From a virus, in IMG/VR virus record IMGVR_UViG_3300029286_003706, positions 14,011 through 78,010 of that record: a stretch of DNA of 64,000 nucleotides; one strand, given 5' to 3'. The notes under the pieces were generated by a model. It worked only from the letters and a program-made list of their open reading frames with translations, was not told the origin of the DNA and did no database searches. Shown here in pieces: positions 16,761 through 59,750 of the stretch (the stretch's first letter is position 1; each line of letters starts with the position of its first letter). Position numbers and translations under genes: made by a program.

Positions 16761-17204
16761 ATGAAAAATCTAAAAACGTTTGAAAGTTTTAACGTTAAAA
16801 AACAAGAACAAAAAGGATTTACAAGTAATATAGAAAATGACACTTTGAAAAATGATAATTTTAGAAAAGTGTTATATACGAGTAAACATATGCAACTTGT
16901 ATTAATGAGTTTAAAACCCGGTGAAGATATTGGAAAAGAAACACATACTAATGTTGATCAATTTTTTAGATTTGAAGCTGGTAATGGTAAATGTATTGTT
17001 AATGAAAATGAATACTTAGTAAATAATGGTGATGTTTTAATAGTACCATGTGGTAGTACACATAATATAATAAATATCGGAAAATCAGATTTAAAAATAT
17101 ACACAATATATACACCACCTAATCATAAAGATGGAATAACATTCGGAACAAAATCCGAAGCATCTAATAGTAAAGAAAAATTTGATGGAATAACAACCGA
17201 ATGA
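16761..17204 (+). CDS. Cupin-domain protein with capsid-targeting-like leader
   Basis: PGEDIGKETH...DQFFRFEAG...GDVLIVPCGSTHNIIN; N-terminus MKNLKTFESFN. Confidence 0.85.
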   Translation: MKNLKTFESFNVKKQEQKGFTSNIENDTLKNDNFRKVLYTSKHMQLVLMSLKPGEDIGKETHTNVDQFFRFEAGNGKCIVNENEYLVNNGDVLIVPCGSTHNIINIGKSDLKIYTIYTPPNHKDGITFGTKSEASNSKEKFDGITTE

Positions 17205-18136
17205 TAACAAAATTTATTCAATACATAAAAGAAAATGATGATTACGATGAAAAACTTGTCAGAATAATGGCTTGGTTATTTATGTCATATGTATATGATA
17301 ATAATGATGGAATGAAAGAATCAAATTGGATTAATGATAACAGAATGGGAATATCTTTTAAATTGGCAATTAAATATTTATCTGAAAATGGTTTTGTTGA
17401 ATTTATAAATGATAAATGGAAAATAACAAAAAAAGGAATAGATGAATTATTTTCATTTTTTAAAATTCCCACAAATAGAGATGAATGGTTGAATTATGAT
17501 AATAGTTGGTTGAAAAAATATGATACTGTTCAATATCCAATTTCTAGGATTCCAACTGAAATATTTGAAAGAGAATTTGAAAAACACACATCAGAAAATA
17601 TTAAATATATACTTGAAAAAAGTGAATATTATGATATTGGTAAATGGTGGTATAAATATCAAAGAGGTACAATAGGTTGGTGGACAAAAATGAACAAATA
17701 TCTTGGTTTAAAAGGAGATTTAATGCCAGATGTTGATTCACTAATTTTATATAGGGGTATTAATTTAAAATGTGGTTCACCAGATAATGAAGAATATTTT
17801 AATAAAGAAATTTGTATTGGAATAAAAAATGGTGAAATTAAAAAAGGTGATAAAATAAAATGTAATAAATCCAGTTGGTCATTATCATCTAGTGTAGCTA
17901 AATCTTTCGCTAGTGGTAAAAAGGGTTTATCGGATCCAATATCAATGAAAGACACCGAAATCGGTATTGTTTTAAAAAATGAATTTAAATCTTCTGAAAT
18001 TTTATTAGATTCGGATTGGGTTAATAATCATAAATTTTTAAAAGATAAATCTGTATTTCCAAGTGAAATGGAGGTAATTATTCAACCAAAAACGAGATAT
18101 GTTGAAATAATTCATATTTTTGATAATAAAAATTAA
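17201..18136 (+). CDS. ADP-ribosyltransferase (R-S-E clade) with leader
   Basis: LYRG, SSWSLSSSVAKSFA, SEMEVII; N-terminus MITKFIQYIKE. Confidence 0.65.
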   Translation: MITKFIQYIKENDDYDEKLVRIMAWLFMSYVYDNNDGMKESNWINDNRMGISFKLAIKYLSENGFVEFINDKWKITKKGIDELFSFFKIPTNRDEWLNYDNSWLKKYDTVQYPISRIPTEIFEREFEKHTSENIKYILEKSEYYDIGKWWYKYQRGTIGWWTKMNKYLGLKGDLMPDVDSLILYRGINLKCGSPDNEEYFNKEICIGIKNGEIKKGDKIKCNKSSWSLSSSVAKSFASGKKGLSDPISMKDTEIGIVLKNEFKSSEILLDSDWVNNHKFLKDKSVFPSEMEVIIQPKTRYVEIIHIFDNKN

Positions 18137-18179
18137 CTAAATTAAATTTTGGACTTCCACTAATTAATATATATTTGTA

Positions 18180-18480
18180 GTGTTGTTCTTTGATATTTGG
18201 TTCCGGACTAAAAACTTAGTTCGGGTAAAATCAATAAAGTAAAAATAATTTTCGGAGCCTACCATAACAGGATGTGCCAACCGTATATAAATTATACTGA
18301 CCGATGGAATGTCGGTTGTTGAACGTGGAGGCCGGCTCTGTGGACGAACGTTTCATTTCGGTGAAACCTAAGAAGCATCTTGTCTGTGAAACGTTAAAAG
18401 AGACGAGTTGAAAGACCCAGAAACCACTATTTAGTGGTCATTCATAATGTTCATCTTTTACCAAAAAATCAAAAGAATAA
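18180..18480 (+). ncRNA. Candidate structured non-coding RNA (~300 nt), class unknown
   Basis: GC-enriched, no long ORF, complementary 5' and 3' ends, several hairpins including a UUCG loop, promoter motif at 18166-18177 and terminator at 18487-18512. Confidence 0.6.
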
Positions 18481-18486
18481 ATTATT

Positions 18487-18512
18487 AAAAAACCCCGAAT
18501 TCGGGGTTTTTT
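18487..18512. terminator. Bidirectional intrinsic terminator
   Basis: Perfect palindrome aaaaaaccccgaattcggggtttttt. Confidence 0.85.
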
Positions 18513-19692
18513 AGTTATTTTTCAAATGTTTTTCAAATATTTCTTTTACTTTATCACGATATTTAACAGGATATATTATTGAATCATGAACAGTAAAAAT
18601 TTTGATATCTTTAATTTGTTTATAAATATCATTTACGACCTTTCCAAATATAAAATCACTTTCCATTCGCATTAGAACGTGACTCAAATATCTATAATCA
18701 CCCTTTGTTTTTTTAATTTTTACAATGAAATCAAATATTTTTGGAAATAATTGTTGAAACATTTGACATTGAATTGATTTTATATTGTTATGTCCAAAAA
18801 GAACTTTATATGTTAATATTTTAACTAAACTTCTATTGTTTTTTTGATTGAAATAATTTGGAAAATGATAAATAATATATTCATAGAACATACCGTTTTC
18901 AACAAGTTCTGTAAAAAGTTTTAATTCTTTATCAGAAACATCCATTTCATACCTTAATAATCTGGAAAGAAAAAATGGTTGTGAATTCGGTAAATCTATT
19001 TCTTCAATTTCTTCATCGTCTATTTTGAGATAATTTTTTCGAATTTGTTTTTTAAGAACAGTAAAGTTTGTATGAAATCTACCATAACTATCAAAAATGA
19101 AATATAAATTTGAATTTTTGATATGATTTATTGAATAGAAATTTTTAAAATATTTTTCATTTGTAATTTCATCACTAGATTTTAAATCACTGATACATTG
19201 TAAAGATTTCTCACTATTTATAGATACATGCTTAAGATCATCAACCAATCTTTTTCTAATATTTATATCAATTGGACTATCACTATAAAGTATATTTCTA
19301 AGATAATCTTTACTAACTCTTTTATTAATAATATTATCATACACAGTAACTCTTCTGATTTTATCTATATCAAACCAATTGAGGACATATGTTCTGGATT
19401 TTTTACCAACACAATAATTAGATGTCATTTTCATAAAACCATTATCAACTAAAAAATCAATATAATACTTATAAAATTTACCATATCGACTTAATAATAT
19501 TTTACTAAATAAATTAAATTCATAATCATCAACATCATAATCATTTGCATTTAATTGAAATTTAATAATTATATCGTTAATAACATTTAACAAATTAGAT
19601 GTTTTTAACATTTTTCCATTATATTCGATAAATGGTGTTTTATTTAAAAAAATGAATTTTTCTGGACAAAAGAATTTCATTCCCTTTTTCAT
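18511..19692 (-). CDS. Minimal family-A/T7-like polymerase (TV-Pol-like) with a possible N-terminal winged helix
   Basis: YGRFHT, motif A EIDLPNSQP, motif B K...YKVLFG, L...ES, motif C TVHDSI; no exonuclease domain. Confidence 0.65.
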   Translation of the reverse strand: MKKGMKFFCPEKFIFLNKTPFIEYNGKMLKTSNLLNVINDIIIKFQLNANDYDVDDYEFNLFSKILLSRYGKFYKYYIDFLVDNGFMKMTSNYCVGKKSRTYVLNWFDIDKIRRVTVYDNIINKRVSKDYLRNILYSDSPIDINIRKRLVDDLKHVSINSEKSLQCISDLKSSDEITNEKYFKNFYSINHIKNSNLYFIFDSYGRFHTNFTVLKKQIRKNYLKIDDEEIEEIDLPNSQPFFLSRLLRYEMDVSDKELKLFTELVENGMFYEYIIYHFPNYFNQKNNRSLVKILTYKVLFGHNNIKSIQCQMFQQLFPKIFDFIVKIKKTKGDYRYLSHVLMRMESDFIFGKVVNDIYKQIKDIKIFTVHDSIIYPVKYRDKVKEIFEKHLKNN

Positions 19693-20516
19693 ATATTTTT
19701 TTTATTTATCGTGTCGGTAATATATTTACAAATAGCATCGGTTGATAAAAAATTATTATAATAATTTACATTTTTTTCATAATAAGAATCAATATTGTTT
19801 AAAATATTTTCAATGAATCTTTTATTTATTTGTTCATAATTACTTATAAAAATAGCTGGACTATCTCTATAATACCAAATATCTTGATTTTGATGAATTG
19901 GAAAATCTGTTATAACAACACAACCAGATTCAAACGATTCCATATAACGAAAACTTTCGGGTACTACTTTTCCAAGTGGGACAAAAGATATTTTTGTTTC
20001 ATTCATTATTTTAAAATAATCATCAATTGGAAATTCGGTCCTAAAACCATTTGTTTCCCTAAAAATACCGTTAAAATTTGAACCACTTATTGATTTTTTA
20101 ATACTATTTATAAATGGAATTCTATTGGGTGAAAATTGGCCACTATAAAAACAATCATATTTTCGTTCACTTAATTTCTTTTTTGGTTGTTCCATTTCAT
20201 ATGTTACAAAATCTGGCATTACCAAACCAAGTGGTATTGGAAATATTTTAATATAATCAAAATTACCTTTTCTGGGATAAGTTCTGAATATTAAATCAAC
20301 TTTATTAAACCAAGTTTTAACAATACCATATTCATCACTTATATAAATAACAATATTTTTTTTATCTGGTTGAAAAAGTGGTAAAGTGTTATCATCGTAA
20401 TTTGTTATAATAAAATTATAATTGTCATCTAAATAATAAAGTTTTTCCATTATTTTTTGAAAAAATTTTCGTTCACAAAAATTTGGAACAACTTGTTCCG
20501 AAAAATTCCATATCAT
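19689..20516 (-). CDS. Exostosin/GT47-like glycosyltransferase
   Basis: CFYSG...Y.KIMNETKISFVPLG...ESFRYMESFESGCV. Confidence 0.65.
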   Translation of the reverse strand: MIWNFSEQVVPNFCERKFFQKIMEKLYYLDDNYNFIITNYDDNTLPLFQPDKKNIVIYISDEYGIVKTWFNKVDLIFRTYPRKGNFDYIKIFPIPLGLVMPDFVTYEMEQPKKKLSERKYDCFYSGQFSPNRIPFINSIKKSISGSNFNGIFRETNGFRTEFPIDDYFKIMNETKISFVPLGKVVPESFRYMESFESGCVVITDFPIHQNQDIWYYRDSPAIFISNYEQINKRFIENILNNIDSYYEKNVNYYNNFLSTDAICKYITDTINKKNI

Positions 20517-20616
20517 ATAAAAATAATTTTTATATTTTTAAAGTTAAAAAAATAAAAAGTTTAATAAAACACATCAGTGATATTTGTCGTGAATAAATTT
20601 TATGACAAATGATCTT

Positions 20617-20868: not shown

Positions 20869-20899
20869 AAATCTTTATATAAAAAATAATTATTTTTGT

Positions 20900-21513: not shown

Positions 21514-21550
21514 AAATTAATTGATTATTTTTATTGTATATATTAATTTT

Positions 21551-21739: not shown

Positions 21740-21877
21740 AAAATTATTATTTAAACTAAATTTTTTTTGGTATATATTAATTTCAACAAATGAATTTTTT
21801 TTTAGAATATATATAAAATAAAAAATAAAGTAATAATACTATCTATGTAGATATTTCAAAAAATAATAACTGAAAAA

Positions 21878-24097: not shown

Positions 24098-25522
24098 ATG
24101 TTAGAAATTAAAGGAAAATATACAACTGCTAAAATTATGACTGATGTTGTAGAACTGTCAGCTTTAACACAAATTTATAATATGGTATCACATCCAGCAT
24201 TTACTAATGAAATAGTTATGCAAATAGATTTACACGCTGGTGCTTCAGCACCAATAGGATTTACGATGCCTTTATCTGAAAAAATTGTCCCGAATACAGT
24301 ATCGGTGGATATTGGATGTGGGGTTTTAGTCATTTGCATGGGTGAAAATTTCACTACTAACAAAGATAAGTTATTGAAAATGGATGAAAAAATTAGGAAT
24401 ATTGTTCCAATGGGTAATAATATCCAAGAAAAATCAGTCATTCCATCAAAATATTTTGAAAAGAATTTTCCTTGGAAAGAAACTAATGATATTGTTAAAA
24501 AATTCATTATTACATATAACAAAAAATTCAATACTAATTTTAATAGTATAGAATTTACATATGACTGGTTTTTGAAAAGACAAAAAGAAATTGGAATGAA
24601 ACAAGATGCTGAATTGGCAATAGGATCACTCGGTAGGGGGAATCATTTTATAAGTATTGAAAAATCAGTTAATTACAATTCTACTTGGTTACTTATTCAT
24701 TGTGGTTCAAGAAATTTTGGTAAAATGATTTGCGAATATCACATGAAAATTGCTAAAAAGGATTTAGACAACAAAAGAAATGTTGTGTTAACAAAAAAAA
24801 TTAATGAAATTAAATTAAATTTTTCTGGTGATATAATTCCATCTAAAATTAAGGAAGCAAAAAAAGATTTGGGTATTGATTTTGAAACAAATATGATTGG
24901 AATGGAATATCTTGAAGGACAACACGCTATGGATTATTTCATTGATATGGTATTTGCACAAAAATATGCTCAATTTAATCGTTCAACTATTTCTAATAAT
25001 ATTCTTAAATCCATTGGAGAAAAAGAAACTGATAGAATTGAATCTATTCATAATTATATAGACTTTTCAGATTTGATTCTTAGAAAAGGTGCAATTCGTT
25101 CATATATTGATGAAAGATTAGTTGTTCCAATTTCTATGGCTTTTGGTTCTTTTTTATGTAAAGGTAAATCAAATCCGGATTTTAATTATAGTGGGCCTCA
25201 CGGTGCAGGAAGATTAATGAGTAGGGGGGTTGCATCCAGATCAATTGATATGAAAGATTTTGAATTTCAAATGAAAGGAATTGTATCAACATCAGTAGTA
25301 AAAAGTTGTTTAGATGAAAGTCCAAATGCTTATAAAAAACCAAAGGATATTGAAATTGGAATAGAACCTACTGCTGAAATTATTGATCATTTGATTCCAC
25401 TCTTAAATATTAAAGATAAAAATGAAACTACCAATTGGAAAGAAAGAAAAGAGAAAGAGAAAAGAGAAAAATCTGAAAGGGTAAATCATAAGGAAATGAG
25501 AAATGCAAGGGGTAAATTTTAA
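24098..25522 (+). CDS. rtcB: RtcB-family RNA ligase
   Basis: DLHAG, VDIGCG, SLGRGNHF, HCGSRNFG, HNY, RKGA, HGAGR, DESPNAYK. Confidence 0.95.
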   Translation: MLEIKGKYTTAKIMTDVVELSALTQIYNMVSHPAFTNEIVMQIDLHAGASAPIGFTMPLSEKIVPNTVSVDIGCGVLVICMGENFTTNKDKLLKMDEKIRNIVPMGNNIQEKSVIPSKYFEKNFPWKETNDIVKKFIITYNKKFNTNFNSIEFTYDWFLKRQKEIGMKQDAELAIGSLGRGNHFISIEKSVNYNSTWLLIHCGSRNFGKMICEYHMKIAKKDLDNKRNVVLTKKINEIKLNFSGDIIPSKIKEAKKDLGIDFETNMIGMEYLEGQHAMDYFIDMVFAQKYAQFNRSTISNNILKSIGEKETDRIESIHNYIDFSDLILRKGAIRSYIDERLVVPISMAFGSFLCKGKSNPDFNYSGPHGAGRLMSRGVASRSIDMKDFEFQMKGIVSTSVVKSCLDESPNAYKKPKDIEIGIEPTAEIIDHLIPLLNIKDKNETTNWKERKEKEKREKSERVNHKEMRNARGKF

Positions 25523-36927: not shown

Positions 36928-37902
36928 ATGATAAAAAAATTCCATTTATTTGAAAAACAACTGCAACTTTTTGATTTACCAAAAACAGATAAGGATGTTA
37001 TACACCAAGTCATAACCAAACATCAAACAAAACCAGTACCAGTAAATATTAAAAGGGGAAATAAATTACAAGATGATTTGGATAAGTGGACGAGTGAAGA
37101 AATTATAAACAAAAAAATTTATGATTATTTGAAAAATAGTGATTTTGGTGGTGATTATATGGATTTATTATCGAAAAATCTTGAAGTTTTATGTGATTAC
37201 GTGGAAGAAAAACCAGAAATGATTTCTAATAGTTATAAAAATTTACCAGAATGGCCAAAAAATGAACGGGGAAAAGAAAAAACTTTATCAGAAATAATAA
37301 GGTCTGATGATTATTGGTTTTGTCATGTAGATAATTACGTTGAAGATGAAGACGATTTTAAAAATTATTTTTTGGAATCCACAAAAAATAATTTATATCA
37401 ACTTTATGACGTAGAATATTTATATGATTTGAAAGATGCTATTTATGATTCAAAAGACCCATATAGATTGAAAATTTATAGGGCTATAACATTACCAAAG
37501 AATGTCGAAGAGTTGGACGATTATAATGGTGTCGGTGTTTATTGGACGTATGACAAAGAAAAAGCGGAGGCTTATTGGTCCAAACATAATAGAGAATTTA
37601 TTTTAGAAGGATGGGTTTATTCTAATGGAATTGATTGGGAAGAAACGGTTTATAAGTCTATTTATATTATGAAAGATGAAAGGGAAATTTTTTTATATAA
37701 TGAAACACCAATTGAATTGACTTCGGTTTATATGAAAAGTATATATAATGAATTTAGAGAAATTAATTCAGTAATTGATGAAGAAAAACGGATTATTAAA
37801 TTATTTGGTTTGAAAAGCGATCAAATTTCAAATTATTTAATAAACAAACACAAAAATATGTCTACGATTATTTTTGATGAACCAATCTGGGTGAAAGCAT
37901 GA
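36928..37902 (+). CDS. ADP-ribosyltransferase-fold protein with leader
   Basis: IYRAI, GVYWT...AEAY, DEREI; N-terminus MIKKFHLFE. Confidence 0.55.
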   Translation: MIKKFHLFEKQLQLFDLPKTDKDVIHQVITKHQTKPVPVNIKRGNKLQDDLDKWTSEEIINKKIYDYLKNSDFGGDYMDLLSKNLEVLCDYVEEKPEMISNSYKNLPEWPKNERGKEKTLSEIIRSDDYWFCHVDNYVEDEDDFKNYFLESTKNNLYQLYDVEYLYDLKDAIYDSKDPYRLKIYRAITLPKNVEELDDYNGVGVYWTYDKEKAEAYWSKHNREFILEGWVYSNGIDWEETVYKSIYIMKDEREIFLYNETPIELTSVYMKSIYNEFREINSVIDEEKRIIKLFGLKSDQISNYLINKHKNMSTIIFDEPIWVKA

Positions 37903-39091: not shown

Positions 39092-40033
39092 TTATTTTAA
39101 AAATAATGAACTTAATGATTTATTTGTATCTATTTTTTTAATAGCTTTTGCCAACATATCGGAACAACTTAAAACAATAATTTTCGATGATTGTTGTTTT
39201 AATGGAATGGTATCAAGAACAAATATTTCTGTTATTTTTGATTTTTCTAAATTTTCATAAGCATTTCCAGATAAAACTGGATGTGTTACCAAGCATCTTA
39301 CACTTTTTGCACCTTTATCCATCATAAGATCAGCAGCTTTACATAAAGTTCCACCAGTATCTATCATATCATCTATAATAAAAACATCCTTACCAGTTAC
39401 ATCCCCAATAAGAATCATTTTATCAATTTCATTTTTCTTTTTACGTGTTTTGGAACAAATAACATAATCAACATTAAATTTATCAGCATATCTAGACATA
39501 CGTTTCACACCCCCGTTATCAGGGGCTGCAAATTGTAGATTTTGAATTATACCATCAGTTAACATTTTCTGAATGTGTGGCCAGAAAACATATGTACCAA
39601 ATAACTGATCAAAAGGAATATTAAAAAAAGCCCCAATCTGATCAGCGTGTAAATCAATTGAAACAACGCGAGTTGCCCCAGAAATTGTTAAAAAATCAGA
39701 CATTAATTTGGATGCAATACCAACCCTTGGTTTATCTTTTCGGTCCTGTCTAGAATAAGAAAAAAATGGAATTACGGCGATGATTTGATTGGCACTCGCT
39801 CTTTTAGCGGCATCTATCATCATAAATAATTCTCCCCAATTGTCGAATGGTGGATTGGTTGATTGTATTAAATAAACATCTCTACCTCTTAAATTTTCTT
39901 CGAATGTTGGTTGAAATTCACCATCAGAAAATATCACTTTTTTAATCTTCCCCAAGGGAACACCCAGATTAAAGGCAACTTTTTCTGATAATTCTTTACT
40001 AGCCGAACCGGAAAATATTTTTATTTTTCTCAT
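39092..40033 (-). CDS. prs: Ribose-phosphate pyrophosphokinase
   Basis: FSDGE, YSRQDRK, DLHADQI, PDNGG, IIDDMIDTGGT, THPVLSG. Confidence 0.96.
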   Translation of the reverse strand: MRKIKIFSGSASKELSEKVAFNLGVPLGKIKKVIFSDGEFQPTFEENLRGRDVYLIQSTNPPFDNWGELFMMIDAAKRASANQIIAVIPFFSYSRQDRKDKPRVGIASKLMSDFLTISGATRVVSIDLHADQIGAFFNIPFDQLFGTYVFWPHIQKMLTDGIIQNLQFAAPDNGGVKRMSRYADKFNVDYVICSKTRKKKNEIDKMILIGDVTGKDVFIIDDMIDTGGTLCKAADLMMDKGAKSVRCLVTHPVLSGNAYENLEKSKITEIFVLDTIPLKQQSSKIIVLSCSDMLAKAIKKIDTNKSLSSLFLK

Positions 40034-40133: not shown

Positions 40134-40286
40134 ATGAAAAAAGTTTTTAGTTTTTCAATAGATGAAAACATTATAAAAAATCTTGATAAATTCTGTAAAG
40201 ATGGTTTGATAACAAAATCAAAATTGATTAATAAAATTATACAAGATTTTATTGAAAAAGAAAATAAGAAAAATGATAGTAAGTGA
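40134..40286 (+). CDS. Ribbon-helix-helix (CopG-like) protein, absent from the ORF track
   Basis: MKKVFSFSIDENIIKNLDKFC...TKSKLINKIIQDFI, 50 aa, overlapping the endonuclease start. Confidence 0.7.
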   Translation: MKKVFSFSIDENIIKNLDKFCKDGLITKSKLINKIIQDFIEKENKKNDSK

Positions 40287-41415
40287 TATTATTCAAATTA
40301 CAGTAAGCACCAAAGATATTTCTAGATTAAAAGAATATTATGGATTACTTAAAGTTGGAGATATTCAAGATATAAAAATTGATTATTTATCAAAAAATAG
40401 TTCCAGAAAAATTCTTGTAAAATGTGATATTTGTGAAAAAGAAAAAAAATTATCCTATGGTAAGTATAATAAAAATATAAAAAAATATAATATTTATAGT
40501 TGTTCTAATAAATGTTCAATAATAAAAAGAGAAAAAAGTAATTTATTGAAATTTGGATGTAAATATTATTCTCAAACGAATGAATATAAAGATAGATATA
40601 AAAAAACATGTTTAGAAAAATATGGTGTTGAAAACTATTTTCAATCTGAGATAGTAAAAAGTGAAATTAAAGAAGTTAATTTGAAAAAATATGGTGTAGA
40701 ACATCCCACACAGTCAAAATCAATAAGAGATAAAATCAAAATAACGAACGAATCGAAGTCTGATGAAATTAAAAATGAAATGAAAGAAAAAACAAAACAA
40801 TCCAATTTAGAAAAATATGGTGTTGAATATTCTTTTCAATCTGATATAGTAAAGAATAAAATTAAAGAAACCAATTTAAAAAAATATGGTGTTGAATATA
40901 GTTCTCAAAATAAAGACAATAGATCAAAATACAAAATTACTTGTTTGAAAAAATATGGAGTTGATAACGTATCCAAATCCGATGAAATTAAAAAATTAAA
41001 ACAAGATGTTTGTTTAGAAAAATATGGTGTAAATCACACTTCACAAGTTCCTGAATTTTATATTAGTCAACAAAAATCCGGTTATAGATTATTTTTTCAC
41101 GACAATACAAAACTTAATTATAGGGGAACTTATGAAAAACATTTTTTAGATTATTGTTTTGATAATAATATATTAATTGAACGGGGAAAAAGAATAAAAT
41201 ATTTATTCGACAATAAGGAACATTATTATTTTTCTGATTTTTATTATGAACCAAAAAATTTGATTATAGAAATCAAAAGTGATTGGACATATAATAAATA
41301 TAAAATTATCAATGATATAAAAAGAGAAAGTACAGAAAAATTAGGATATAATTATATGTTCATTTTTAATAAAGATTATAAAGAATTTGAAGAAGTAATT
41401 AAATTAAATATATAA
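40273..41415 (+). mobile_element. Putative homing endonuclease (Zn ribbon, KYGV repeats, PD-(D/E)xK domain)
   Basis: VKCDIC, several LEKYGV repeats, GTYE...YFSDFY...IIEIKS. Confidence 0.75.
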
Positions 41416-47534: not shown

Positions 47535-49070
47535 ATGATATTAACAAAAAATATAAAAGTTGGGATATGTTTTAATAATATTAATCATTATAAACAATAT
47601 TTTGATAATTTAAAAATTGGTGATAAAATAGAAATTCCAATAGAAAAATTATCACCGGGTAGTCATTTGAAAATTTTATCCAAATGTGATATTTGTGGTG
47701 TAGAAAAAAATATTCCATATAGAGATTATTTAAATAGTTTTAATAACGGAAATTATTTCTGTTGTAATAAATGTGCATTAGAAAAAAGAAGAAAAACTAA
47801 ATTGGAAAAATATAACGATGCAGGATATCATAATATTGAAAAAATGAAAAAAACCAATTTAGAAATATATGGTTTTGAAAACGTTTTCCAAAACGAAGAT
47901 ATTAAAGATAAAATAAAAGAAACTTGTTACAAAAAATATAAAGTTAAATTTACATCTCAAACAAATATTGTCAAAGAAAAAACAAAAGAAACTTGTTACA
48001 AAAAATATAAATACCATCACCATTTAAAAAATGTAGAAATATTAAATAAGCTATATAGTACAAATTTAGAAAGATACAAAAATAAATTTTATCTTAAATC
48101 AACTATTTATAAAAATAAAAGAGTGAATTTTTTGTTGGAAAATTATAATTTAAATGTTATAAATTTTGATAAATCTGTTTATACAATAAAATGTGATATT
48201 TGTAATAAAGAATATAATATAAAAAATAGTTTGATGCTTCAAAGAATTTTATATAAAACAAAAATGTGTGTTTTGTGCAATCCGATTAATTCTTATTGTG
48301 AAAGTGGAAAAGAAAATCAACTATCAAATTTTATTAAAAGTTTTTGTGATAATATAATATTAAATGATAGACATTTAATAAAAGAATTAGATATTTATTT
48401 ACCGAATTTGAAATTGGCATTTGAGTTTAACGGAATATACTGGCATAGTGAATTAAATGTTGATAAAAATTATCATCTAAATAAAACTGAATTATGTGAA
48501 CAACATGGGATTCATTTAATTCATATTTATGAAGATGATTGGATATATAAACAAGAAATAGTTAAATCTAAAATACTCGATTTATTAGATAAAATACCAA
48601 ATAAAATTTATGCTAGAAAATGTGAAATTAGAGAAATAATAGATAATAAATTAATTTACTGTTTTCTAGAAGAAAACCATCTACAAGGTTTTATTGATTC
48701 ACAAATTAAACTTGGGTTGTTTTATAACGATGAACTGGTTTCTTTAATGATTTTCAGTGAACAACCAGATGGTATTTATGAAATGTTTAGAGTTTGTAAT
48801 AAAAATTATATATCAGTTATCGGGGGTTTTAATAAATTGTTCAAATATTTTGTCGAAAAATATAAACCAAAAGAAATTATTAGTTATGTTGATAGATCGT
48901 GGAGTAAAGGCGATTTATATTATAAATTAGGATTTACTTATATTAGTAAAACATCACCCAATTATTATTGTGTAATTGATGGTAAGAAATCAAATGGTGA
49001 TATAATAGACGAAAGAAAAAATTATCACATTTATGATAGTGGAAATTTAAAATTTGTTTATTTTATCTAG
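47535..49070 (+). mobile_element. Putative homing endonuclease, paralogue of 4481 and 49883, with C-terminal deletions
   Basis: KCDIC, KY repeats, ELDIYLPNLKLAFEFNGIYWH. Confidence 0.7.
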
Positions 49071-49830
49071 CCATTCTAAACCAAGAAACTGTCGTTTGAC
49101 CCTTTATTTCTTCGTTAACTTTATCTACCATAGACTGACCACCACTTATAATATCTTGAGCATTATAGTTGAAATTACCCGGCATATTAAAATTAAAACG
49201 ACCAATCTGTTCGCCCATTCTAACTCTACACAACCCAATACAATATCTTTTAAACATTTCAAAATCAAACAATTCTTCTTCTTGAATTCTAACCCACACT
49301 TCTAACATATGATTGGATTCACCGGGATATGATTCTAAACTACCCAAAAAATTAAGTTGTTTGTTTATTGGGTTAAAACTAAATTTAACAGTATCTTTTG
49401 TCATTTTATTTATTTCATCGGAAAAATAACTGATTACTGAACGATAGAGTGCGAGGTCCCCCGCAGTGGTTACAAAGCTAGTTAAGAAAGGCTGATTTGT
49501 AACCCCCAAATTAATAGATAGATTTGGTGCTTGAATACCAATTCTAAATAAAGATAAATCATTTATTTTTATAATTCTTGTTATATTTTCAACTTCTTCT
49601 GGCATGATTAAATATTTGAATCTAGAATATGTGTCCCTCAACAACATGTCTTTTTTCATAAAATAATAAAATTTTTGAAGAGAAAATTGATAATTTTTAT
49701 AGAAATATTCTAGGGCTAATTCTTTCACTACACGTTTTACTTCTTTATCAACCAAAACTTTTGGTAGTGCACCAGAAAACGTCAAGTCGGCTTGTATGAT
49801 GTCTATTAATTGTTCAATTGTTATTGACAT
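49063..49830 (-). CDS. Neck/head-completion protein (T4 gp13-like)
   Basis: 255 aa; ALEYFY, FSFNPINKQL, KRYC...G..IGRFNFNMPGNFNYN..DI...G pattern; AATATATA upstream. Confidence 0.65.
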   Translation of the reverse strand: MSITIEQLIDIIQADLTFSGALPKVLVDKEVKRVVKELALEYFYKNYQFSLQKFYYFMKKDMLLRDTYSRFKYLIMPEEVENITRIIKINDLSLFRIGIQAPNLSINLGVTNQPFLTSFVTTAGDLALYRSVISYFSDEINKMTKDTVKFSFNPINKQLNFLGSLESYPGESNHMLEVWVRIQEEELFDFEMFKRYCIGLCRVRMGEQIGRFNFNMPGNFNYNAQDIISGGQSMVDKVNEEIKGQTTVSWFRMAR

Positions 49831-49882
49831 AAACTTTAAATGTTTTTATTTATATATTAATTTTATAAAGACAAAAACTCAA

Positions 49883-51745
49883 ATGATATTAGATAAGGAA
49901 GTAAAAATAACAATTAATCCAAAAGTAGATAGGACATATTTCAAATTGGATTATTATGACATTAATATTGTGAAAGATCCATTTCAAATTTTTATTAAAA
50001 TGGAAGATTTAAATAAAAGTTCTAGGATTAAGATAAATGTAAAATGTGATGTTTGTAATAATGAAAAAATTATTACTTATTTATCATATAATGAAAATAT
50101 AAACAATTATGGTGTTTATGCTTGTTCTCCAAAATGTGCATCTTTTAAAAATAAATTAACAAATAAAGAAAAATATGGTGATGAAAATTTCAATAATAGG
50201 GAAAAAAGTAAGATAACAAATTTAGAAAAATATGGTGTTGATAATGTTCAAAAATATAAAGATATAAAAAATAAGTCTGTTGATACCATTAAAAATAGTT
50301 ATGGTTATGAAGTTATAATGGATAAAGTAAGAAGTAAAGTAAAAGAAAAATATGGAAAAGATCATGCATTACAAGTTGATGAATTATATAAAAAATCTGA
50401 AAATACCAAATTAGAAAAATATGGTGATAAAAATTATAATAATAGAGAATTGTGTAAAAAGACATGTTTAGAAAAATCAGAAATAGAAAAAAACAAAACA
50501 GTTGAAAAAAGAAAAGAAACATGCTTAGAAAGATATAATAAAGAATATTCTATTACTTCTGATATTGTAAAAAATAAAATATTAAAAATATTTAATGAAA
50601 AATATGGTGGAAATACACCATATGCTGATAAGAATTTAAGATTAAAATCTGCTGAAAAATATACTAATGAACATATAAATTATATTAAAGATAATATTAA
50701 AGAATTTCAATGTGAATATATTAATCATAAAAATAAAAATAAAAATAATTGTAATATTGAATATACTTTAAAATGTATTAGGACTAATAAATTATTTACA
50801 ATATCTTATTCAAATTTAAGAATACGAATTTTGAAAAAATTAGAAATTTCACCTTTTTTTAGAGATGAATATGGTAAATCTAATATGGAAAAAGATTTGT
50901 ATAATTTCATTAAAGAAAATTATACAGAAAACATTTTATTAAACAAAAAAGATATAATTAAACCATTAGAAATAGATATTTATCTTCCAGATTTAAAATT
51001 AGCATTTGAATTTAATGGATTATTTTGGCATAACGAAATAAATAAATCAAATGATTATCATTTAGAAAAAACAGAATTTTGTGAACAACAAGGAATACAT
51101 CTGATACATATTTATGAGGATGATTGGATATATAAACAAGAAATAGTTAAATCCAGAATTCTTAATTTACTTGGTAAAACACCAAACAAAATTTATGCTA
51201 GAAAATGTATCATAAAAGAAATTACTGATAATAAATTAGTTTACGAATTTTTAAATACAAATCATCAACAAGGGTTTATTATTTCAAAAATTAAAATAGG
51301 ATTATTTTACGAAAATGAATTAGTATCTTTAATGATTTTTGGAAATCAAAGAATATCAATGGAAACAAAAAGTAAAGAAAACACTTATGAAATATTAAGA
51401 TTTTGTAGTAAATTAAATACATCAGTTATTGGTGGATCTGAAAAATTATTTAAATATTTTATCGAAAATTATAATCCAAAAGAAGTGATTAGTTATGCGG
51501 ATAGATCGTGGAGTCAAGGTGAATTGTATAAAAAATTAAAATTCAATTTCGTTGGTAAAACCCCATCAAATTATTATTATATTGTTGATGGTATTAAAAA
51601 ATACAAATTCGGTTTTAGAAAAGATAAATTAATTCGTGATGGTTTTGATCCAACTAAAACTGAACATGAAATAATGTTGGAAAGAAATATATTTAGAATT
51701 TACGATAGTGGAAGCTTAAAATTCATTTGGAAATTTAATATATAA
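49883..51745 (+). mobile_element. Putative homing endonuclease, paralogue of 4481 and 47535
   Basis: Start re-assigned to MILDKEVKITINP; VKCDVC, EKYG repeats, EIDIYLPDLKLAFEFNGLFWH. Confidence 0.7.
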
Positions 51746-52384: not shown

Positions 52385-52810
52385 ATGATAATCAAAAAAT
52401 ATAAAGATTTTATAAATGAATCTTCCAATGATGATTTTGTTTTATTATATCACGGTTCTAGTAAAGAAAACGAAGAAAATTTATTAAAAAATGGTTGGCA
52501 ACCAAATAAAGTATTATCTGGATCGAATCAAGGAAACCCAAATTATTTATATTTGGCCCTATCACCAGAATCAGCTTGTTATTATGCAGCTTGTAAAGAT
52601 AATGATAAAAATGTTTTAGAAGTAAGAATACCAAAATCTTATTTAAAAGTTGATCCACATGATGGAATGTATCATGGTAATGTTGATATGGAATTAGAAC
52701 ATGGTGTCTCATTAGTTTGTTTTAAAAAATTACCATCTTGGGCATTTAACAAATATACTGGTGATTTTAAAGTAACGGGATGTGATGATTTCTTTGATGA
52801 TTATGATTAA
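52385..52810 (+). CDS. ADP-ribosyltransferase-fold protein (H-Y type) with leader
   Basis: LYHGS...L.NG...LYLA.SPESACYYA...VLEVRI; N-terminus MIIKKYKDFINE. Confidence 0.65.
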   Translation: MIIKKYKDFINESSNDDFVLLYHGSSKENEENLLKNGWQPNKVLSGSNQGNPNYLYLALSPESACYYAACKDNDKNVLEVRIPKSYLKVDPHDGMYHGNVDMELEHGVSLVCFKKLPSWAFNKYTGDFKVTGCDDFFDDYD

Positions 52811-54714: not shown

Positions 54715-54731
54715 AATTTTTAATTATTTTT

Positions 54732-55478: not shown

Positions 55479-55500
55479 AATTCTATATATTATAATTTAA

Positions 55501-55944
55501 TTACATTTTCATTGTAACTGATACATCATTAGCACCTGTTCCAATTATACCACCCCCACCACCACCAGTATTACCATTAATATTCGCTGAAGTATATCCT
55601 TGATCAGCTGATTTATAAAGTCCCGGATAAGCACCCATTATTTGTTTTTTGCTGACTGTAACAATACTATTATTTTTATCTAAAACACCCGGTTTATTAA
55701 AATCAGAGTTTTCAACATTTAATGTTACTTCTATATTATTGTTTGTTAAAAATGATAAAATTTTACCAGATGCTTCTACTTTATCATTTGGTTTATTTGA
55801 ATCAGGTACATACCAGAACATAATAGAATCACCAATTCCCGGTTCTTTATCTGTTGATTGAGTTACATTCATTGGTGCACTATTAGCTGTGTTCCCAGCA
55901 TTGATTTGATCTTGATAACTTTCAAATGTTTTTAAATACTTCAT
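55501..55944 (-). CDS. Hypothetical protein with capsid-targeting-like leader
   Basis: MKYLKTFESY; Gly-rich tail. Confidence 0.65.
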   Translation of the reverse strand: MKYLKTFESYQDQINAGNTANSAPMNVTQSTDKEPGIGDSIMFWYVPDSNKPNDKVEASGKILSFLTNNNIEVTLNVENSDFNKPGVLDKNNSIVTVSKKQIMGAYPGLYKSADQGYTSANINGNTGGGGGGIIGTGANDVSVTMKM

Positions 55945-56429
55945 TGTATGGTATTATTATTTTGTGGTTGTGGTTGTGATTCAATATTTTGTGATTCATC
56001 GTTCTGTATTTCTGGTTTAACACCAGTATCTATTTTAATACCATGTTCATCAGCCCAATCATATATTCTATTAAAATATCTATTGGATTTTTTTTCATCG
56101 TATTCACCCGACTGATCCATAACTTCCTTTATATCATACCAACAGGTTTCACTTATTTTTTGTAATTCGGATCTCTTTTCTGTTATTCTATCTTTGTATT
56201 TTTTTACAAATTCATTGAAATCAATAGATTTTGATTGATATTCACCCCAAATGTCCTTAATATCAATTGTCATAAACCATTGAATATCAGGACTATCATA
56301 ACCAACATCATTAATAATAAACAGTGTTGGTTTATTTGGATCTTGACTTTGAACGTCTTGACTTTGAGGTTGATTTTCAGTTTCTTCCTCTTTATTTTCA
56401 TTTATAAATTGAAAAAATGTTTTAAGCAT
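55941..56429 (-). CDS. Hypothetical protein with capsid-targeting-like leader
   Basis: MLKTFFQFINE. Confidence 0.65.
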   Translation of the reverse strand: MLKTFFQFINENKEEETENQPQSQDVQSQDPNKPTLFIINDVGYDSPDIQWFMTIDIKDIWGEYQSKSIDFNEFVKKYKDRITEKRSELQKISETCWYDIKEVMDQSGEYDEKKSNRYFNRIYDWADEHGIKIDTGVKPEIQNDESQNIESQPQPQNNNTIQ

Positions 56430-56497
56430 ATTTTTATCATATCCTAATATTTTTCTTATATATTAAAAATGAAAAACAAAAATAATATATAAACATA

Positions 56498-57538
56498 ATG
56501 ACAAACTTATTTACATATCAAGATTTTTTAAATGAATTAAAAATTTCTAAAGACTATAATGAAATTAAAAATTTAGAATCAACTTATTTTGTTATTTATA
56601 AGGAAAACATATATTTTTTTGATTGGGGATTGAAAGATTACGTTGAAAAATTTAAAGATTTTTATAAATATTTGTTTGATGATAATGTCATTCCCATTTC
56701 TGGTATGATTAAATATAAATTATCAAATATAACAGATTTTGATTCAGCTAATTCTTTTTTTGACTATTATTTGGTTGATAATCCTAAGATAATATCTGGT
56801 CAATTTTATTCAAATTATTACAATAAAAATATCCCAAAAGATAGTGTGGTTGCTAAATTTAATATAAATATATATTATGAAATAAAAATATCAGATATTT
56901 TAAATAAATTTATGAAATTTTTACCCGGATTGGAATATTTTGAAATTGAAGATGTGGTTTATCATCGAGATGAAATTTTAAAAAAATACGGGAAAAATTT
57001 TAATAAACAAATAAAATTACCAGATAAAATTTATCATGGAACGTCATCACAATTTATTGAAGATATTTTGAAAAAGGGGTTAGAACCTAAAAAAGAAAAT
57101 ACTGTTTTTTCAGTGAAACATAATAAATATGTTTATTTTACAACATCATTCAAAACTGCTGAACGATATGCTAAAATGTCAACAGCGAGGGATTTTAATT
57201 TAAAAACCACACAAGTTATATTGGAAATAGATTCAAATAGAATAGATAAAGATAAAATTATTTTCGATTTTGATTTTTATAATAAATTCGTGGGGAAAGG
57301 AAATGATACATATGATAATCAATTAAAAAATTTGGGAATACCACCATCCGGTGATGAATTATTATATACTAAATTTTCAAATAAAAATATGGGTGGTTTA
57401 TATAAAAAATTTGGTTATAACGGAATTATTTTACCAACAAAAATAAATAAAATATATTATTTTACTAAAAATAGAGAATGGGAAAAATTTACAATTCCGG
57501 AATTTAAAGAATATATGAAAAAGGAAAAAATGTCATGA
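56498..57538 (+). CDS. ADP-ribosyltransferase-fold protein (H-Y type, Tpt1/Arr-like) with leader
   Basis: IYHGTS...ILKKGL.P...VYFTTSFKTAERYA...VILEID; N-terminus MTNLFTYQDFLNE. Confidence 0.7.
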   Translation: MTNLFTYQDFLNELKISKDYNEIKNLESTYFVIYKENIYFFDWGLKDYVEKFKDFYKYLFDDNVIPISGMIKYKLSNITDFDSANSFFDYYLVDNPKIISGQFYSNYYNKNIPKDSVVAKFNINIYYEIKISDILNKFMKFLPGLEYFEIEDVVYHRDEILKKYGKNFNKQIKLPDKIYHGTSSQFIEDILKKGLEPKKENTVFSVKHNKYVYFTTSFKTAERYAKMSTARDFNLKTTQVILEIDSNRIDKDKIIFDFDFYNKFVGKGNDTYDNQLKNLGIPPSGDELLYTKFSNKNMGGLYKKFGYNGIILPTKINKIYYFTKNREWEKFTIPEFKEYMKKEKMS

Positions 57539-59082
57539 AAAATATTTTTACATATCAAGATTTTTTATTGGAAATGTATAATCCAATTAAATTCAAACTT
57601 CTTTTGAGTGATGAAATTACTGATATTATTAGTAAAATAGATTTACCAATTTCAGATATAATTTTAAATTTTAAAGGGGAATTGGATGTTTCTTATATCG
57701 ATACTACTTCTGTTCCGGAAATGATTAGTTATTATAGATTAGATAATTATAAAAAATCACTTTTGAAATTAGATGATGTTAAAATTGTAAATAGAGATTT
57801 ATGGAATAGTAAATATAGGGAACAAATGAGATTGGGAAAATTTATAAATCAAATATTAGCAGAAACCAAATCTTCTATTGGTCCTGTTGAAATTGAAAAT
57901 TTTGTAAATCAATATAAAGGAATATTTAGTTCTATCAGATTTGGTTTCCAAAATTTCGATATGGTTTACGGAGAAAATTTAAGAAAATTTTATTATGAAA
58001 AAACATATATGACTGGTGGTGGTTTTTTAAATAATGGTTGTATGAGACATGATTATTGTCAAAAATATCTAAATATTTATGTTGAAAATCCAGATAAGAT
58101 TAATTTATTGATTATGAGAAATCCGAAAAATAAATTGAAAATTGATGGTAAAGCATTAATTTGGAATTTAGATAGCCATAAAGGTAAAAAACTAATGGAT
58201 TTACCCTATTGTACTAAAAATTATATGATGACAATATTTCAGGAATATGCAATGAAAAAAGGATGGTATTATACAAAAATTGAAGAAGGTAAAGATAATT
58301 ATAGATTTTTAAACATATTTGATTCGAAAGGAAATAAAACAGATGAAGCATTTGAAGTAAATGTTACACCTGAAGAATATGAATATTACCCACATGTTGA
58401 TTTGTTGAAATATTATAATCCATATACAGGAAATTTAACAAATGATAAAAGTGTAATCAAAGATGACGAAGATTATATTATTTTGGACCAAGATAATGGA
58501 AGTTATACCACAGTAAAAGATACTTTGAATGAATCGTTTGAAAATAAAGAATTTAAAGATTGGTTTGGTGAAAGTAAAATTGTCAAGGGTGAAAAACCAT
58601 TGTTAGTTTATCATTTTAATAAAAAAGATAAAATTGACCCTTTTAATAAAAATGAAATATATTTTACTGATGATAAGAAATTTGGAAAAAGATATTTGGG
58701 GTTTTGTAAAGAACATAAAGCTTATCTAAAAATCATCAATCCATTTATTTGTACGAATAAAAATTTAAAATTAATATTTGAAGAATATCACCCTTATAAT
58801 AAAGAATATTGGTCGAGAGAATTTAATGATGAAAATTCTAATAAAAATAGTAATAAGGAATGTTATAGATCATATGGTTATGGAAAATCTGGATATGATG
58901 GTAAAATTTTAAATTATATATATAATTATAATCAATCTAATTTAAAAGAAAGAAAAATAGTTCATTCTATAATAACAAAATTGAAATATGATGGTGTTAT
59001 AATTCCTTATGATTGGGATGGTAAATATGGAACAATAAAATCATTTGTTGTTTTCGATAAAAATCAAATTTGGGAACTATGA
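57535..59082 (+). CDS. Two-domain protein: unknown domain plus C-terminal ART-like (polyvalent-protein type) domain, with leader
   Basis: MKNIFTYQDFLLE; FKDWFGESK...KPLLVYH...IYFTD...YLKIINPF...YDGVII...VVFDKNQI. Confidence 0.65.
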   Translation: MKNIFTYQDFLLEMYNPIKFKLLLSDEITDIISKIDLPISDIILNFKGELDVSYIDTTSVPEMISYYRLDNYKKSLLKLDDVKIVNRDLWNSKYREQMRLGKFINQILAETKSSIGPVEIENFVNQYKGIFSSIRFGFQNFDMVYGENLRKFYYEKTYMTGGGFLNNGCMRHDYCQKYLNIYVENPDKINLLIMRNPKNKLKIDGKALIWNLDSHKGKKLMDLPYCTKNYMMTIFQEYAMKKGWYYTKIEEGKDNYRFLNIFDSKGNKTDEAFEVNVTPEEYEYYPHVDLLKYYNPYTGNLTNDKSVIKDDEDYIILDQDNGSYTTVKDTLNESFENKEFKDWFGESKIVKGEKPLLVYHFNKKDKIDPFNKNEIYFTDDKKFGKRYLGFCKEHKAYLKIINPFICTNKNLKLIFEEYHPYNKEYWSREFNDENSNKNSNKECYRSYGYGKSGYDGKILNYIYNYNQSNLKERKIVHSIITKLKYDGVIIPYDWDGKYGTIKSFVVFDKNQIWEL

Positions 59083-59750
59083 TAACTAATTTTAAAATAT
59101 TTGAGAATATATCAAATAAATATCCGGAAGAATTTATTGAAGCTGTTAATAATACACCGGGGGCTGAAATTATATCAAGTGGAATAAAATTGGACATATC
59201 ACGTTATCAAAAACCAGAACAATCTGGTGGTTGGAGTGTAAGAACAGGTGTATTTTTCTTACCGGAAATTAAATCACCATATTCTAGATATTATAGAAAT
59301 AAAAAAAGTTATGGTGGTAAAGAATATGTAACAGGTAAAACAATCATAAAAAATCCATATATTATAAAAGCTGGAACTGGTGGAATTGGACCCGAAAAAG
59401 CTTTTATAAAAATTGTTGGAAAACAGAAACATGAAGAAATGTTACATGATATATTTAAAATTCAAGGTTGGGGGAGAACAAAATACCAAAAGGAAGAAGA
59501 TGTTACTGAATTTTTAGATAAATATGATGGTGATGTAGATAGTGCTTATGATATTGTTCGATGGAGTGATGAGGGGAATCGTATGAGATACGCCTTACAA
59601 GAACATATAATTGCCCACACTTTAAGAGATGCTGGTTATGATTCTATATTGAGTTATTCAAAAAGTGATGGTAAACCAAGATTATCCGAATTGTTTGATT
59701 TGAGACAAAAACAATATCCCGGTGAAACTAATTTTGAATTTTACGAATAA
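59079..59750 (+). CDS. Divergent ART-like protein with leader
   Basis: Start at MITNFKIFE (ATGA overlap); GVFF...IIKNPYII...AGYDSIL resembles the preceding domain. Confidence 0.5.
   Translation: MITNFKIFENISNKYPEEFIEAVNNTPGAEIISSGIKLDISRYQKPEQSGGWSVRTGVFFLPEIKSPYSRYYRNKKSYGGKEYVTGKTIIKNPYIIKAGTGGIGPEKAFIKIVGKQKHEEMLHDIFKIQGWGRTKYQKEEDVTEFLDKYDGDVDSAYDIVRWSDEGNRMRYALQEHIIAHTLRDAGYDSILSYSKSDGKPRLSELFDLRQKQYPGETNFEFYE

Follow-up and report, generated by a model that had tools for sequence, protein, structure and literature searches.

The closest described counterparts of the system reported here come from phage T4, from polyvalent proteins and from jumbo phages. In T4, the capsid-targeting sequence (CTS) reads MKTYQEFIAE (PMC8442874), with residues 4 and 7 serving in targeting and residues 8 and 10 directing cleavage by gp21 (PMC9026906). 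ADP-ribosyltransferases (ARTs) of polyvalent proteins have been described since 2017, and the ART-PolyVal family, which belongs to the Tox-ART-HYD2 clade, is defined by a His in strand 1, a Tyr in strand 2 and an Asp in strand 5 (PMC5512222). Jumbo phages with multiple ARTs are likewise on record (Bacillus phage G, for one, encodes 10 or more), ARTs occur in more than 40% of jumbo phages, and about 44% of phage ARTs lie in contexts that suggest packaging in the head (PMC9503650). Here we describe six genes for ART-like proteins, each beginning with a related leader peptide, in a 64,000-nucleotide stretch of viral DNA (hereafter the window, to which coordinates refer; IMG/VR virus record IMGVR_UViG_3300029286_003706, positions 14,011 to 78,010). 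The source record is a single contig of 78,010 bp, and because CheckV rates its completeness at 11%, a complete genome of about 700 kb is implied.

Our best explanation, to which we assign a probability of about 0.6 when the leader and the delivery that it would direct are included, is that the six genes encode ART-superfamily enzymes from at least four separate families. These comprise two new families with an Arg-Ser-Glu (R-S-E) layout, one paralogous pair of His-Tyr (H-Y) type resembling the nicotinamide adenine dinucleotide (NAD) lobe of PARP and Tpt1, and two ART-PolyVal (Tox-ART-HYD2-like) proteins. A previous sequence-only reading of this DNA had assigned an ART fold and a common leader to all six proteins; the fold call is supported at graded strength, strongly for the C-terminus of 57535, well for 36928 and 56498 and moderately for 17201, 59079 and 52385, and all six N-termini match the leader pattern. 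The motifs that it had named, R-S-E-like in the products of genes 17201 and 36928, H-Y-type in those of 52385 and 56498, and polyvalent-type in the C-terminus of 57535, are all present at the places it gave, with the key residues of the first two proteins invariant in their homologues.

ART-PolyVal-like proteins

The strongest of the six assignments is that of P0005 (515 amino acids; 57535-59082, plus strand), which consists of a leader, an N-terminal multicopy domain (residues ~14-330; 57574-58524, plus strand) and an ART-PolyVal domain (residues ~335-515; 58537-59079). The landmarks of the latter are VYHF with H360 (residues 358-361; 58606-58617), IYFTDD with Y376 (residues 375-380; 58657-58674), KYDG with D486 (residues 484-487; 58984-59001) and Q511. 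An exhaustive phmmer search with residues 321-515 recovered 189 proteins at E≤1e-3, mostly giant (1,000-7,000 amino acids) and with several matching stretches, and PF18760 (ART-PolyVal) was present in all 10 of the matches sampled. For an independent score, a hidden Markov model (HMM) was built from 19 foreign full-length PF18760-bearing domains and run on the 213 open reading frames (ORFs) of the contig. This foreign-only model ranks 57535, 59079 and 56498 as its top three and gives P0005 65.6 bits (E 9e-20). P0005 retains all but one (a Gly) of the positions conserved at ≥80%, and H360, Y376 and D486 are intact and align to the YH, Y/F and GYDG positions by which the family is recognised. 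Pfam's own PF18760 model reports nothing in P0005 at E≤1, and the closest homologue, P0059, reaches 28.2 bits relative to a cut-off of 31.2. Because Pfam's own model misses it, we call P0005 a divergent ART-PolyVal member; it carries the canonical H-Y-D residues, and its place in the ART superfamily is close to certain. The N-terminal domain is unrelated to the ART domain and has no Pfam or PDB sequence match. It occurs in 7-15 copies per record in uncultured phages of 630-735 kb (LR756501-4, LR745206) and in one copy in Cellulophaga phages.

The adjoining gene encodes P0006 (223 amino acids; 59079-59750, plus strand), in which the leader is followed by a divergent ART-PolyVal-like domain (59121-59747). 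The recorded protein, which begins with the leader, starts at the ATG at 59079; an alternative TTG start lies at 59070. The sequence-only reading had described the polyvalent motifs of this protein as weaker, a fair description of ISRYQ (59196-59210), which probably places R42 at the family His position, GVFFLP (59247-59264; F59/F60) and GYDS (59634-59651; D188), alongside which stand KNPY with P93 and FDLRQ (59694-59708). The foreign-only HMM scores P0006 at 20.9 bits (E 4.4e-6 among the 213 ORFs), relative to a maximum of 11.5 in 3,000 shuffles, and reports 23 of 24 members of its family at 5-21 bits. When the family was compared with ART-PolyVal by hhalign at a permissive threshold, every conserved block was co-linear at a probability of only 23.5%. 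The paired blocks (P0006 family/ART-PolyVal) are F..AV/F..WF, G.KL.VSR/G.PLVVYH, GVFYLP/G.FFT, K.P/KNP, GYDS/GYDG and FDLRQ/F.P.Q, so that D188 in GYDS falls on the strand-5 Asp of GYDG. Among neighbours in the ESM Atlas, 12 of 30 are ART-PolyVal, accompanied by clusters of AcrIF11-type ARTs (score 0.93). Among 24 aligned homologues R42 and G80 never vary and D188 is kept in at least 90%; Pfam gives zero matches for any of these family members. As an alternative identity we considered CMP-NeuAc synthetase, to which the family has a weak PDB profile match (E 0.0036), and rejected it as what looks like a local coincidence at GYDS. P0006 is thus read as probably a divergent ART-PolyVal relative with an invariant R42 in place of His, probably R-[F/Y]-D in its residue set, and membership in the superfamily is likely.

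R-S-E-like proteins

P0002 (324 amino acids; 36928-37902, plus strand) starts with a leader, continues with an uncharacterised N-terminal half and ends in a compact ART domain of R-[S/T]-E type (about residues 178-324; 37459-37899). Its candidate catalytic residues are R185 in IYRA (residues 183-186; 37474-37485), W206-T207 in YWT (residues 205-207; 37537-37548) and E251/E253 in ERE (residues 251-253; 37678-37689). The 6-7 homologues, the most distant at 28% identity, all keep R185, W206, E251 and E253 and have either S or T at residue 207, so that one hydroxyl residue only is retained of the S-T-S motif. When residues 120-324 were folded alone (predicted local distance difference test, pLDDT, 66; predicted template modelling score, pTM, 0.59), the Arg fell on the first strand (61-68), the W-T on the second (86-88) and the E-x-E at the opening of a later strand (134-137). 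The predicted model and the structure searches both show the split beta-sheet NAD-binding core of the ART fold.

These structure searches used two independent methods. In an exhaustive VIA-align comparison with 48,161 chains, a method independent of Foldseek, about 44 of the top 50 rows were ART-fold proteins. TreX led with a score of 7.0 (root-mean-square deviation 3.2 Å, 96 of 128 residues aligned), followed by IcmQ (6.3), EcPltA (5.5), CARDS toxin, heat-labile enterotoxin and Scabin (5.2 each), Arr (4.8) and pertussis toxin (4.7), with diphtheria toxin, ParT, PARPs and Tpt1 in lower rows. The Foldseek list likewise consists of ARTs, with cholera toxin A1 at its top (probability 0.89, E 0.05), and DRAT stands among the ESM neighbours of P0002, in agreement with an ART. 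Each single score is not high, and it is the uniformity of the two lists that argues, at the level of a predicted model, for the ART fold; we regard the assignment as very likely.

P0001 (311 amino acids; 17201-18136, plus strand) joins a leader (residues 1-11) to a winged-helix, Mrr_N-like domain (about residues 17-86), a helical linker (residues 93-168) and an R-S-E ART-like domain (about residues 175-311; 17723-18133). Candidate catalytic residues are R185 in LYRG (residues 183-186; 17747-17758), S225 in SSWS (residues 224-227; 17870-17881) and E289/E291 in EME (residues 289-291; 18065-18076). All 13 homologues (47-71% identity) share L-Y-R185-G, S225, W226, E289 and E291 and have S or T at residue 227. 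In the AlphaFold2 model (pLDDT 76) the winged helix (17-86) is joined through a helical region to an alpha/beta domain (180-308); strand 180-190 holds R185, strand 225-227, ahead of a helix, holds S-W-S, and strand 291-294 opens with E-x-E. In the predicted model this is the canonical R-S-E layout, and the residues of P0001 and P0002 alike occupy the strands expected for that clade, which is recognised by an Arg in strand 1, Ser-x-Ser/Thr in strand 2 ahead of a helix and Glu-x-Glu where strand 5 opens.

Comparison with known ART structures by Foldseek, the check that had been proposed with the sequence-only reading, bore out P0002 and gave less for P0001, whose full-length model has zero PDB matches at E≤1e-3; its weak rows (E 0.04-0.4) include TreX, Vis, C2-I, VIP2, BECa, C3larvin and CDTa. 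In BFVD the same model has 7 matches at E≤1e-3, headed by a 1,390-amino-acid protein with a head-morphogenesis domain, with several annotated phage ARTs lower in the list. Could the R-S-E-like motifs of 17201 and 36928 then be coincidental, in proteins of other folds and functions? We consider this quite improbable. The three motif positions are invariant in homologues down to 28-49% identity and lie on the canonical strands, the P0002 list came from an unbiased search, and ARTs turn up for P0001 in both PDB and BFVD. P0001, too, is in our judgement a probable member of the ART superfamily. Members of its family have Mrr_N and HTH_45 matches in Pfam, and the winged-helix N-terminal domain raises the possibility that P0001 is a DNA-guided enzyme.

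H-Y-type proteins

P0003 (141 amino acids; 52385-52810, plus strand) is a leader followed by a minimal H-Y-type ART-like core, with LYHGS (residues 21-25; 52445-52459; H23), YLYLAL (residues 54-59; 52544-52561; Y56 region), CYYAA (residues 65-69) and PHDGMY (52655-52672), which holds a possible strand-5 Asp. P0004 (346 amino acids; 56498-57538, plus strand) combines a leader and an uncharacterised N-terminal half with an H-Y-type ART domain (about residues 165-346; 56990-57535), where IYHGT (residues 178-182; 57029-57043; H180), YVYFTT (residues 211-216; 57128-57145; Y213) and AERYA (residues 221-225) are found. The third catalytic position of P0004 has two uncertain candidates, E243 in ILEID and N308 in GYNGII (57413-57430). 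The two proteins are paralogues (BLASTP E 1e-6 over residues 21-70; phmmer 6e-5).

Profile matches of the pair divide between two families. For P0003 these are Pfam PARP (E 1.4e-3, 18.6 bits, under the cut-off), phrog_6170 (E 4.5e-4) and the NCBIfam RNA 2'-phosphotransferase (E 0.04). P0004 matches Pfam PARP (PF00644) at 25.7 bits relative to a cut-off of 26.7, as well as phrog_11974 (E 4e-10) and phrog_5470, an RNA 2'-phosphotransferase (E 1.6e-4), and has a tblastn match to a Vibrio phage 'PARP catalytic domain protein'. The PARP match of both proteins spans profile positions 26-110 of 199, leaving the catalytic Glu region unaligned; with scores under the gathering cut-off and the Glu of the H-Y-E triad outside the alignment, neither reaches the definition of a PARP. 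The H-Y half of P0004 also scores 11.5 bits with the foreign ART-PolyVal HMM, relative to a maximum of 7.9 in 3,000 shuffles. On a reading of the sequences, GYNG of P0004 (if the alignment holds) and HDG of P0003 would sit where ART-PolyVal has GYDG.

It might be argued that 52385 and 56498 do not encode effectors but KptA/Tpt1-type RNA 2'-phosphotransferases that act with the phage RtcB ligase to repair tRNA. Tpt1/KptA is indeed the best match of P0004 in Pfam, NCBIfam, PHROGs and PDB sequences, RtcB is encoded at 24098-25522, and KptA is frequent in jumbo phages (PMC9503650). The match to Tpt1 (PF01885), however, is restricted to the NAD-binding lobe (profile positions 93-165 of 177; 26.3 bits, cut-off 26), the N-terminal RNA lobe, with its catalytic Arg/His residues, is absent, PARP scores equally well, and the NCBIfam equivalog scores for KptA are 13-23 bits relative to cut-offs of 231-279. 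RtcB ligation, moreover, leaves no 2'-phosphate for a KptA to remove, and a packaging-type leader would be unexpected on a repair enzyme. We therefore rejected P0004 as a bona fide KptA, with half of the model matched, the RNA lobe missing and equivalog scores tenfold below their cut-offs, and hold the repair role for the pair to be very improbable. Membership of P0004 in the ART superfamily is, by comparison, very probable, and that of P0003 fairly likely.

The shared N-terminal leader

The six ART-like proteins all start with a related leader of 9-13 residues, in which aromatic-x-x-aromatic is combined with [I/L]-x-E within residues 5-13. The leaders are MITKFIQYIKE in P0001, MIKKFHLFE in P0002, MIIKKYKDFINE in P0003, MTNLFTYQDFLNE in P0004, MKNIFTYQDFLLE in P0005 and MITNFKIFE in P0006. 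A strict regular expression for the leader is matched by 11 of 133 ORF starts, compared with about 1% of internal windows, and looser forms pick up further ORFs, P0002 and P0006 among them.

Upstream of some of these genes lies a DNA motif. An A/T run with ATATATA recurs directly before the ATGs at 36928, 56498, 2987 (minus strand), 22153, 23249 (minus strand) and 34432 (4-12 nucleotides upstream) and suggests a promoter so near the ATG that the mRNAs would be nearly leaderless. Motifs of this type precede genes that open a transcription unit, and the operon-internal genes 17201, 57535 and 59079 encode the leader without it. The leader is best read as a protein-level feature, because these operon-internal genes have it without the promoter-like motif, because homologues of P0001, P0002 and P0006 in other phages keep it, and because fused homologues carry it internally. 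A promoter-proximal DNA feature was considered and rejected, given the operon-internal and fused copies. Among the fused homologues, P0020 of another phage has the order ParB/Srx-like domain (DGRHR), internal leader, P0001-type module and C-terminal 'KIITKFKDFENIY', and P0033-P0045 of other phages have a P0006-type module, then IITSYKxFE, then more sequence. Leaders at the module boundaries of such proteins would look like what is expected of a targeting-and-cleavage or processing site.

Further ORFs of the contig share these features. A 228-amino-acid ORF (record positions 1289-1975, window -12721 to -12035, minus strand) has the leader MIITFTEYLNEN and the motifs LYHGG, IFFMTPSYDEAKNYA and EVFEIKV, and was noted as a seventh H-Y-type ART candidate (ART-PolyVal HMM 7.2 bits, E 0.07). 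A 905-amino-acid ORF (record 6796-9513, minus strand) contains KLGYDGLIIKG, which resembles the strand-5 motif of ART-PolyVal, and a 257-amino-acid ORF (record 5732-6505, minus strand) carries in its interior, at about residue 121, 'IHIKKYDQFINES', which resembles the leader; both ORFs seem to encode several modules joined at leader-type sites. Given the LYHGG-type ORF and the GYDGLII module, both upstream of the window, the contig probably holds more than six leader/ART-type modules.

Proposed packaging and delivery

The aromatics and the I/L-x-E of a T4-type CTS are found in six of the six leaders. By analogy with T4, the six proteins would be synthesised together with the head proteins, and the leader would bring them into the prohead, where a Glu-specific prohead protease would trim them after the Glu of the leader; the trimmed proteins would then be ejected with the DNA into the host, where the injected enzymes could consume NAD+ of the cell in the ADP-ribosylation of its proteins or nucleic acids, in the service of takeover or counter-defence. 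Packaging and injection are plausible, the likeness of the leader to the T4 sequence being the one feature that points to them.

Searches of the 78 kb contig and of two related fragments (5-11% complete) turned up no Glu-specific prohead protease of the gp21/S77 or gp175/S80 type. In LR756501.1, a distantly related phage of 735 kb, two ORFs (about 73.9-75.8 kb and 11.3-11.9 kb) have a prohead serine protease as their best Pfam match, with S80 at 25.7 bits, over the cut-off, and S77 at 24.7 bits, under it. Proteases of the gp21/gp175 type, NadV, Macro and ADP-ribosylglycohydrolase were all looked for in the contig and none was found, which is no evidence of absence, as the record is only 11% complete.

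A different view is that the ARTs are not packaged and act in the infected cell after their synthesis, as T4 ModA and ModB do. The leader would then serve another purpose, whether in translation start on near-leaderless AT-rich mRNAs, as a localisation or assembly tag, or as a degron or activation peptide. In line with this view, the ART genes have no head genes or protease near them in the contig, the ATATATA motif 4-12 nucleotides from the ATG of unit-first genes constrains their 5' ends, and the leader also heads non-obvious cargo such as a cupin. On the other hand, operon-internal genes have the leader without the promoter motif, a translation-start feature would leave the internal and C-terminal leaders of fused homologues unexplained, and the leader pattern matches functionally mapped positions of the T4 CTS. 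We consider action without packaging rather unlikely.

A broader form of the packaging explanation can be offered tentatively, and we think it doubtful as a whole. In it the leader would be a universal address-and-cut signal by which one prohead protease loads and releases at least eight ARTs, stand-alone here and as polyprotein modules in relatives. The new classes among them might include a winged-helix-guided R-S-E ART whose targets, at the site of DNA entry, could be DNA or nucleoid proteins, together with an ART-PolyVal scaffold that has an Arg-type NAD site.

Evidence for and against the enzyme assignments

The motifs on which the six assignments draw appear to exceed chance, because they are invariant in homologues and because the ART-PolyVal HMM ranks 57535, 59079 and 56498 at the top of the contig, with P0006 and P0004 far above shuffled sequences. 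Sequence profiles are silent on three of the families: Pfam reports zero ART families for any member of the P0001, P0002 and P0006 families, PDB sequence profiles of the three give zero ART matches, and neither source finds an ART in P0002 itself. When the P0001 C-terminal, P0002 C-terminal and P0006 families and ART-PolyVal were compared by hhalign, none showed a relationship except the P0006 family to ART-PolyVal, at the low probability given above. The division into three types made in the sequence-only reading survives in that two R-S-E proteins, one H-Y pair and two ART-PolyVal-like proteins are recovered; its boundaries are less firm, as 52385 and 56498 may share an H-Y-D/E supergroup with the polyvalent type and 59079 probably has Arg for His.

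Several observations weigh against our explanation. The Pfam cut-off of an ART model is not reached by five of the six proteins, and the match of P0004 to Tpt1 covers the NAD lobe only. Both VIA searches with the full P0001 model were filled by winged-helix repressors, matches to its N-terminal domain. P0006 probably lacks the family His, with R42 in the His column of the hhalign alignment, which is of low confidence in this region, and no conserved His in its 24-member family. For a third catalytic residue P0003 and P0004 offer uncertain candidates, with Asn for Asp in P0004 if the alignment to ART-PolyVal holds. With regard to delivery, the 78 kb contig contains no recognisable gene for a prohead protease, capsid, portal or tail protein; the surroundings of the ART genes are homing endonucleases, a helicase, RtcB, a phosphoribosyl pyrophosphate (PRPP) synthetase and a sigma factor, not head genes; and LR756501, the source of the protease candidates, has no P0001 homologue.

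Some of the same residues bear on whether at least one of the six is a catalytically dead ART-fold protein, for instance an NAD or nucleotide binder or a scaffold, in which case there would be fewer than six active enzymes. The probable Arg of P0006 for the ART-PolyVal His, the GYNG of P0004 for the family GYDG and the mere 141 residues of P0003 fit such a loss, as does IcmQ, the second structural match of P0002, which binds NAD and has no known transferase activity. Yet the substituted positions are themselves conserved in the 24 homologues of P0006 (R42 and D188), Arg at strand 1 is normal for the R-S-E clade, where it is the usual NAD-contacting residue, and P0001 and P0002 keep the full R/S/ExE set. 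We judge the loss of catalysis in one or more of the proteins to be unlikely, and retain six enzymes as the preferred reading.

Genomic setting

The window has a guanine-plus-cytosine content of 25%. The contigs that carry homologues of the studied proteins reach 643 and 736 kb. Megablast with 20 kb found no close relative in a set of 50,697 deposited phage records, and when each protein was searched in this set by tblastn, 17201, 36928, 52385 and 59079 had zero matches. The homologue search returned no relatives of P0003, P0004 and P0005 in viral contigs and none of P0004 in metagenome contigs. The host is probably a member of the Bacteroidota, to judge from sequence features; a Bacteroidota-type signal peptide at 60862 is compatible with this.

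Genes 56498, 57535 and 59079 form a three-gene unit with P0004 first. The stop of a gene for a cupin-domain protein (16761-17204, plus strand; Cupin_2, E 3e-13) overlaps the start of the 17201 ART gene, and the cupin protein has the same leader type (MKNLKTFESFN). At a distance of 1.2 kb from the ART gene 36928 is a PRPP synthetase gene (39092-40033, minus strand; Pribosyltran_N, E 3.5e-42), which may point to a link with nucleotide or NAD supply. The helicase is encoded at 6187-7764. Four paralogous homing/HNH endonuclease genes (4481-6184, minus strand; 40273-41415, 47535-49070 and 49796-51745, plus strand; phrog_3339/559/12131) are interspersed with the ART genes.

Comparison with known systems

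Head-packaged ARTs and multi-ART jumbo phages are already known, and what is new here is the membership of the families. Three of these have no Pfam model (the 17201, 36928 and 59079 types), one being fused to a winged helix and one probably having an Arg-for-His active site, and in this huge, AT-rich phage all families stand behind a T4-type leader. The three types would be new entries for the catalogue of ARTs and possible tools or anti-defence factors, and in phage systems outside the standard models the short, portable leader could be a handle for loading cargo. Should the leader function as its T4 counterpart does, phages of this lineage would infect with an exceptionally wide range of NAD-dependent modifying enzymes on board, and the paradigm of Alt and the internal proteins would extend to the largest known phages, of Bacteroidota-type hosts.

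As in T4, where Alt and the internal proteins IPI-III are so tagged, an ART effector and unrelated cargo share an N-terminal tag of about 10 residues. The leaders follow the T4 pattern of an aromatic (4), an aromatic (7), I/L (8) and E (10), and two of them read TYQDFL-x-E, close to the T4 CTS. Unlike T4, the phage probably infects Bacteroidota, has a genome of about 700 kb and is not T4-like; at least six ARTs from at least four families are tagged, compared with one in T4; and a gp21 homologue was not found in the fragment, so that packaging and cleavage are suggested by the leader. The ART domains are also not demonstrably of the Alt/VIP2 family, the Alt-like BFVD match of P0001 having an E of only 3.7e-2.

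The R-S-E toxins (TreX/TreTu Rhs, the A subunits of cholera, LT, pertussis and PltA, Scabin, CARDS and DRAT) differ from P0001 and P0002 in that the latter have no detectable sequence similarity to them and no secretion or B-subunit context. P0002 has just 22 residues from Arg to [S/T] and W-[S/T] instead of S-T-S, and P0001 is fused to a winged helix. P0003 and P0004 resemble PARP (PF00644) and the NAD lobe of Tpt1/KptA (PF01885) in the H-x-[ST] of strand 1 and in the Tyr of strand 2 with its helix, whereas their scores are at or below the cut-offs, the Tpt1 RNA lobe and the catalytic Glu region of PARP are unmatched, and the proteins are much shorter or have unrelated N-terminal halves. With the ART-PolyVal domains of phage and conjugative-element polyvalent proteins (PMC5512222), the C-terminus of P0005 is homologous, including H, Y and D, and P0006 appears as a divergent relative. 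Delivery with the DNA is predicted for polyvalent proteins and for P0005 and P0006 alike; the former are giant, with 2-15 domains, whereas the latter are small (515 and 223 amino acids) and stand behind a CTS-like leader. Finally, the multi-ART jumbo phages (PMC9503650) offer the same picture of a large phage with many diversified ARTs predicted as virion cargo. The top BFVD match of P0001, the protein with a head-morphogenesis domain, recalls the MuF/portal-fused ARTs of that survey (PMC9503650), from which the present set differs in that the address would be a short cleavable leader in place of fusion to MuF or portal or adjacency to head genes.

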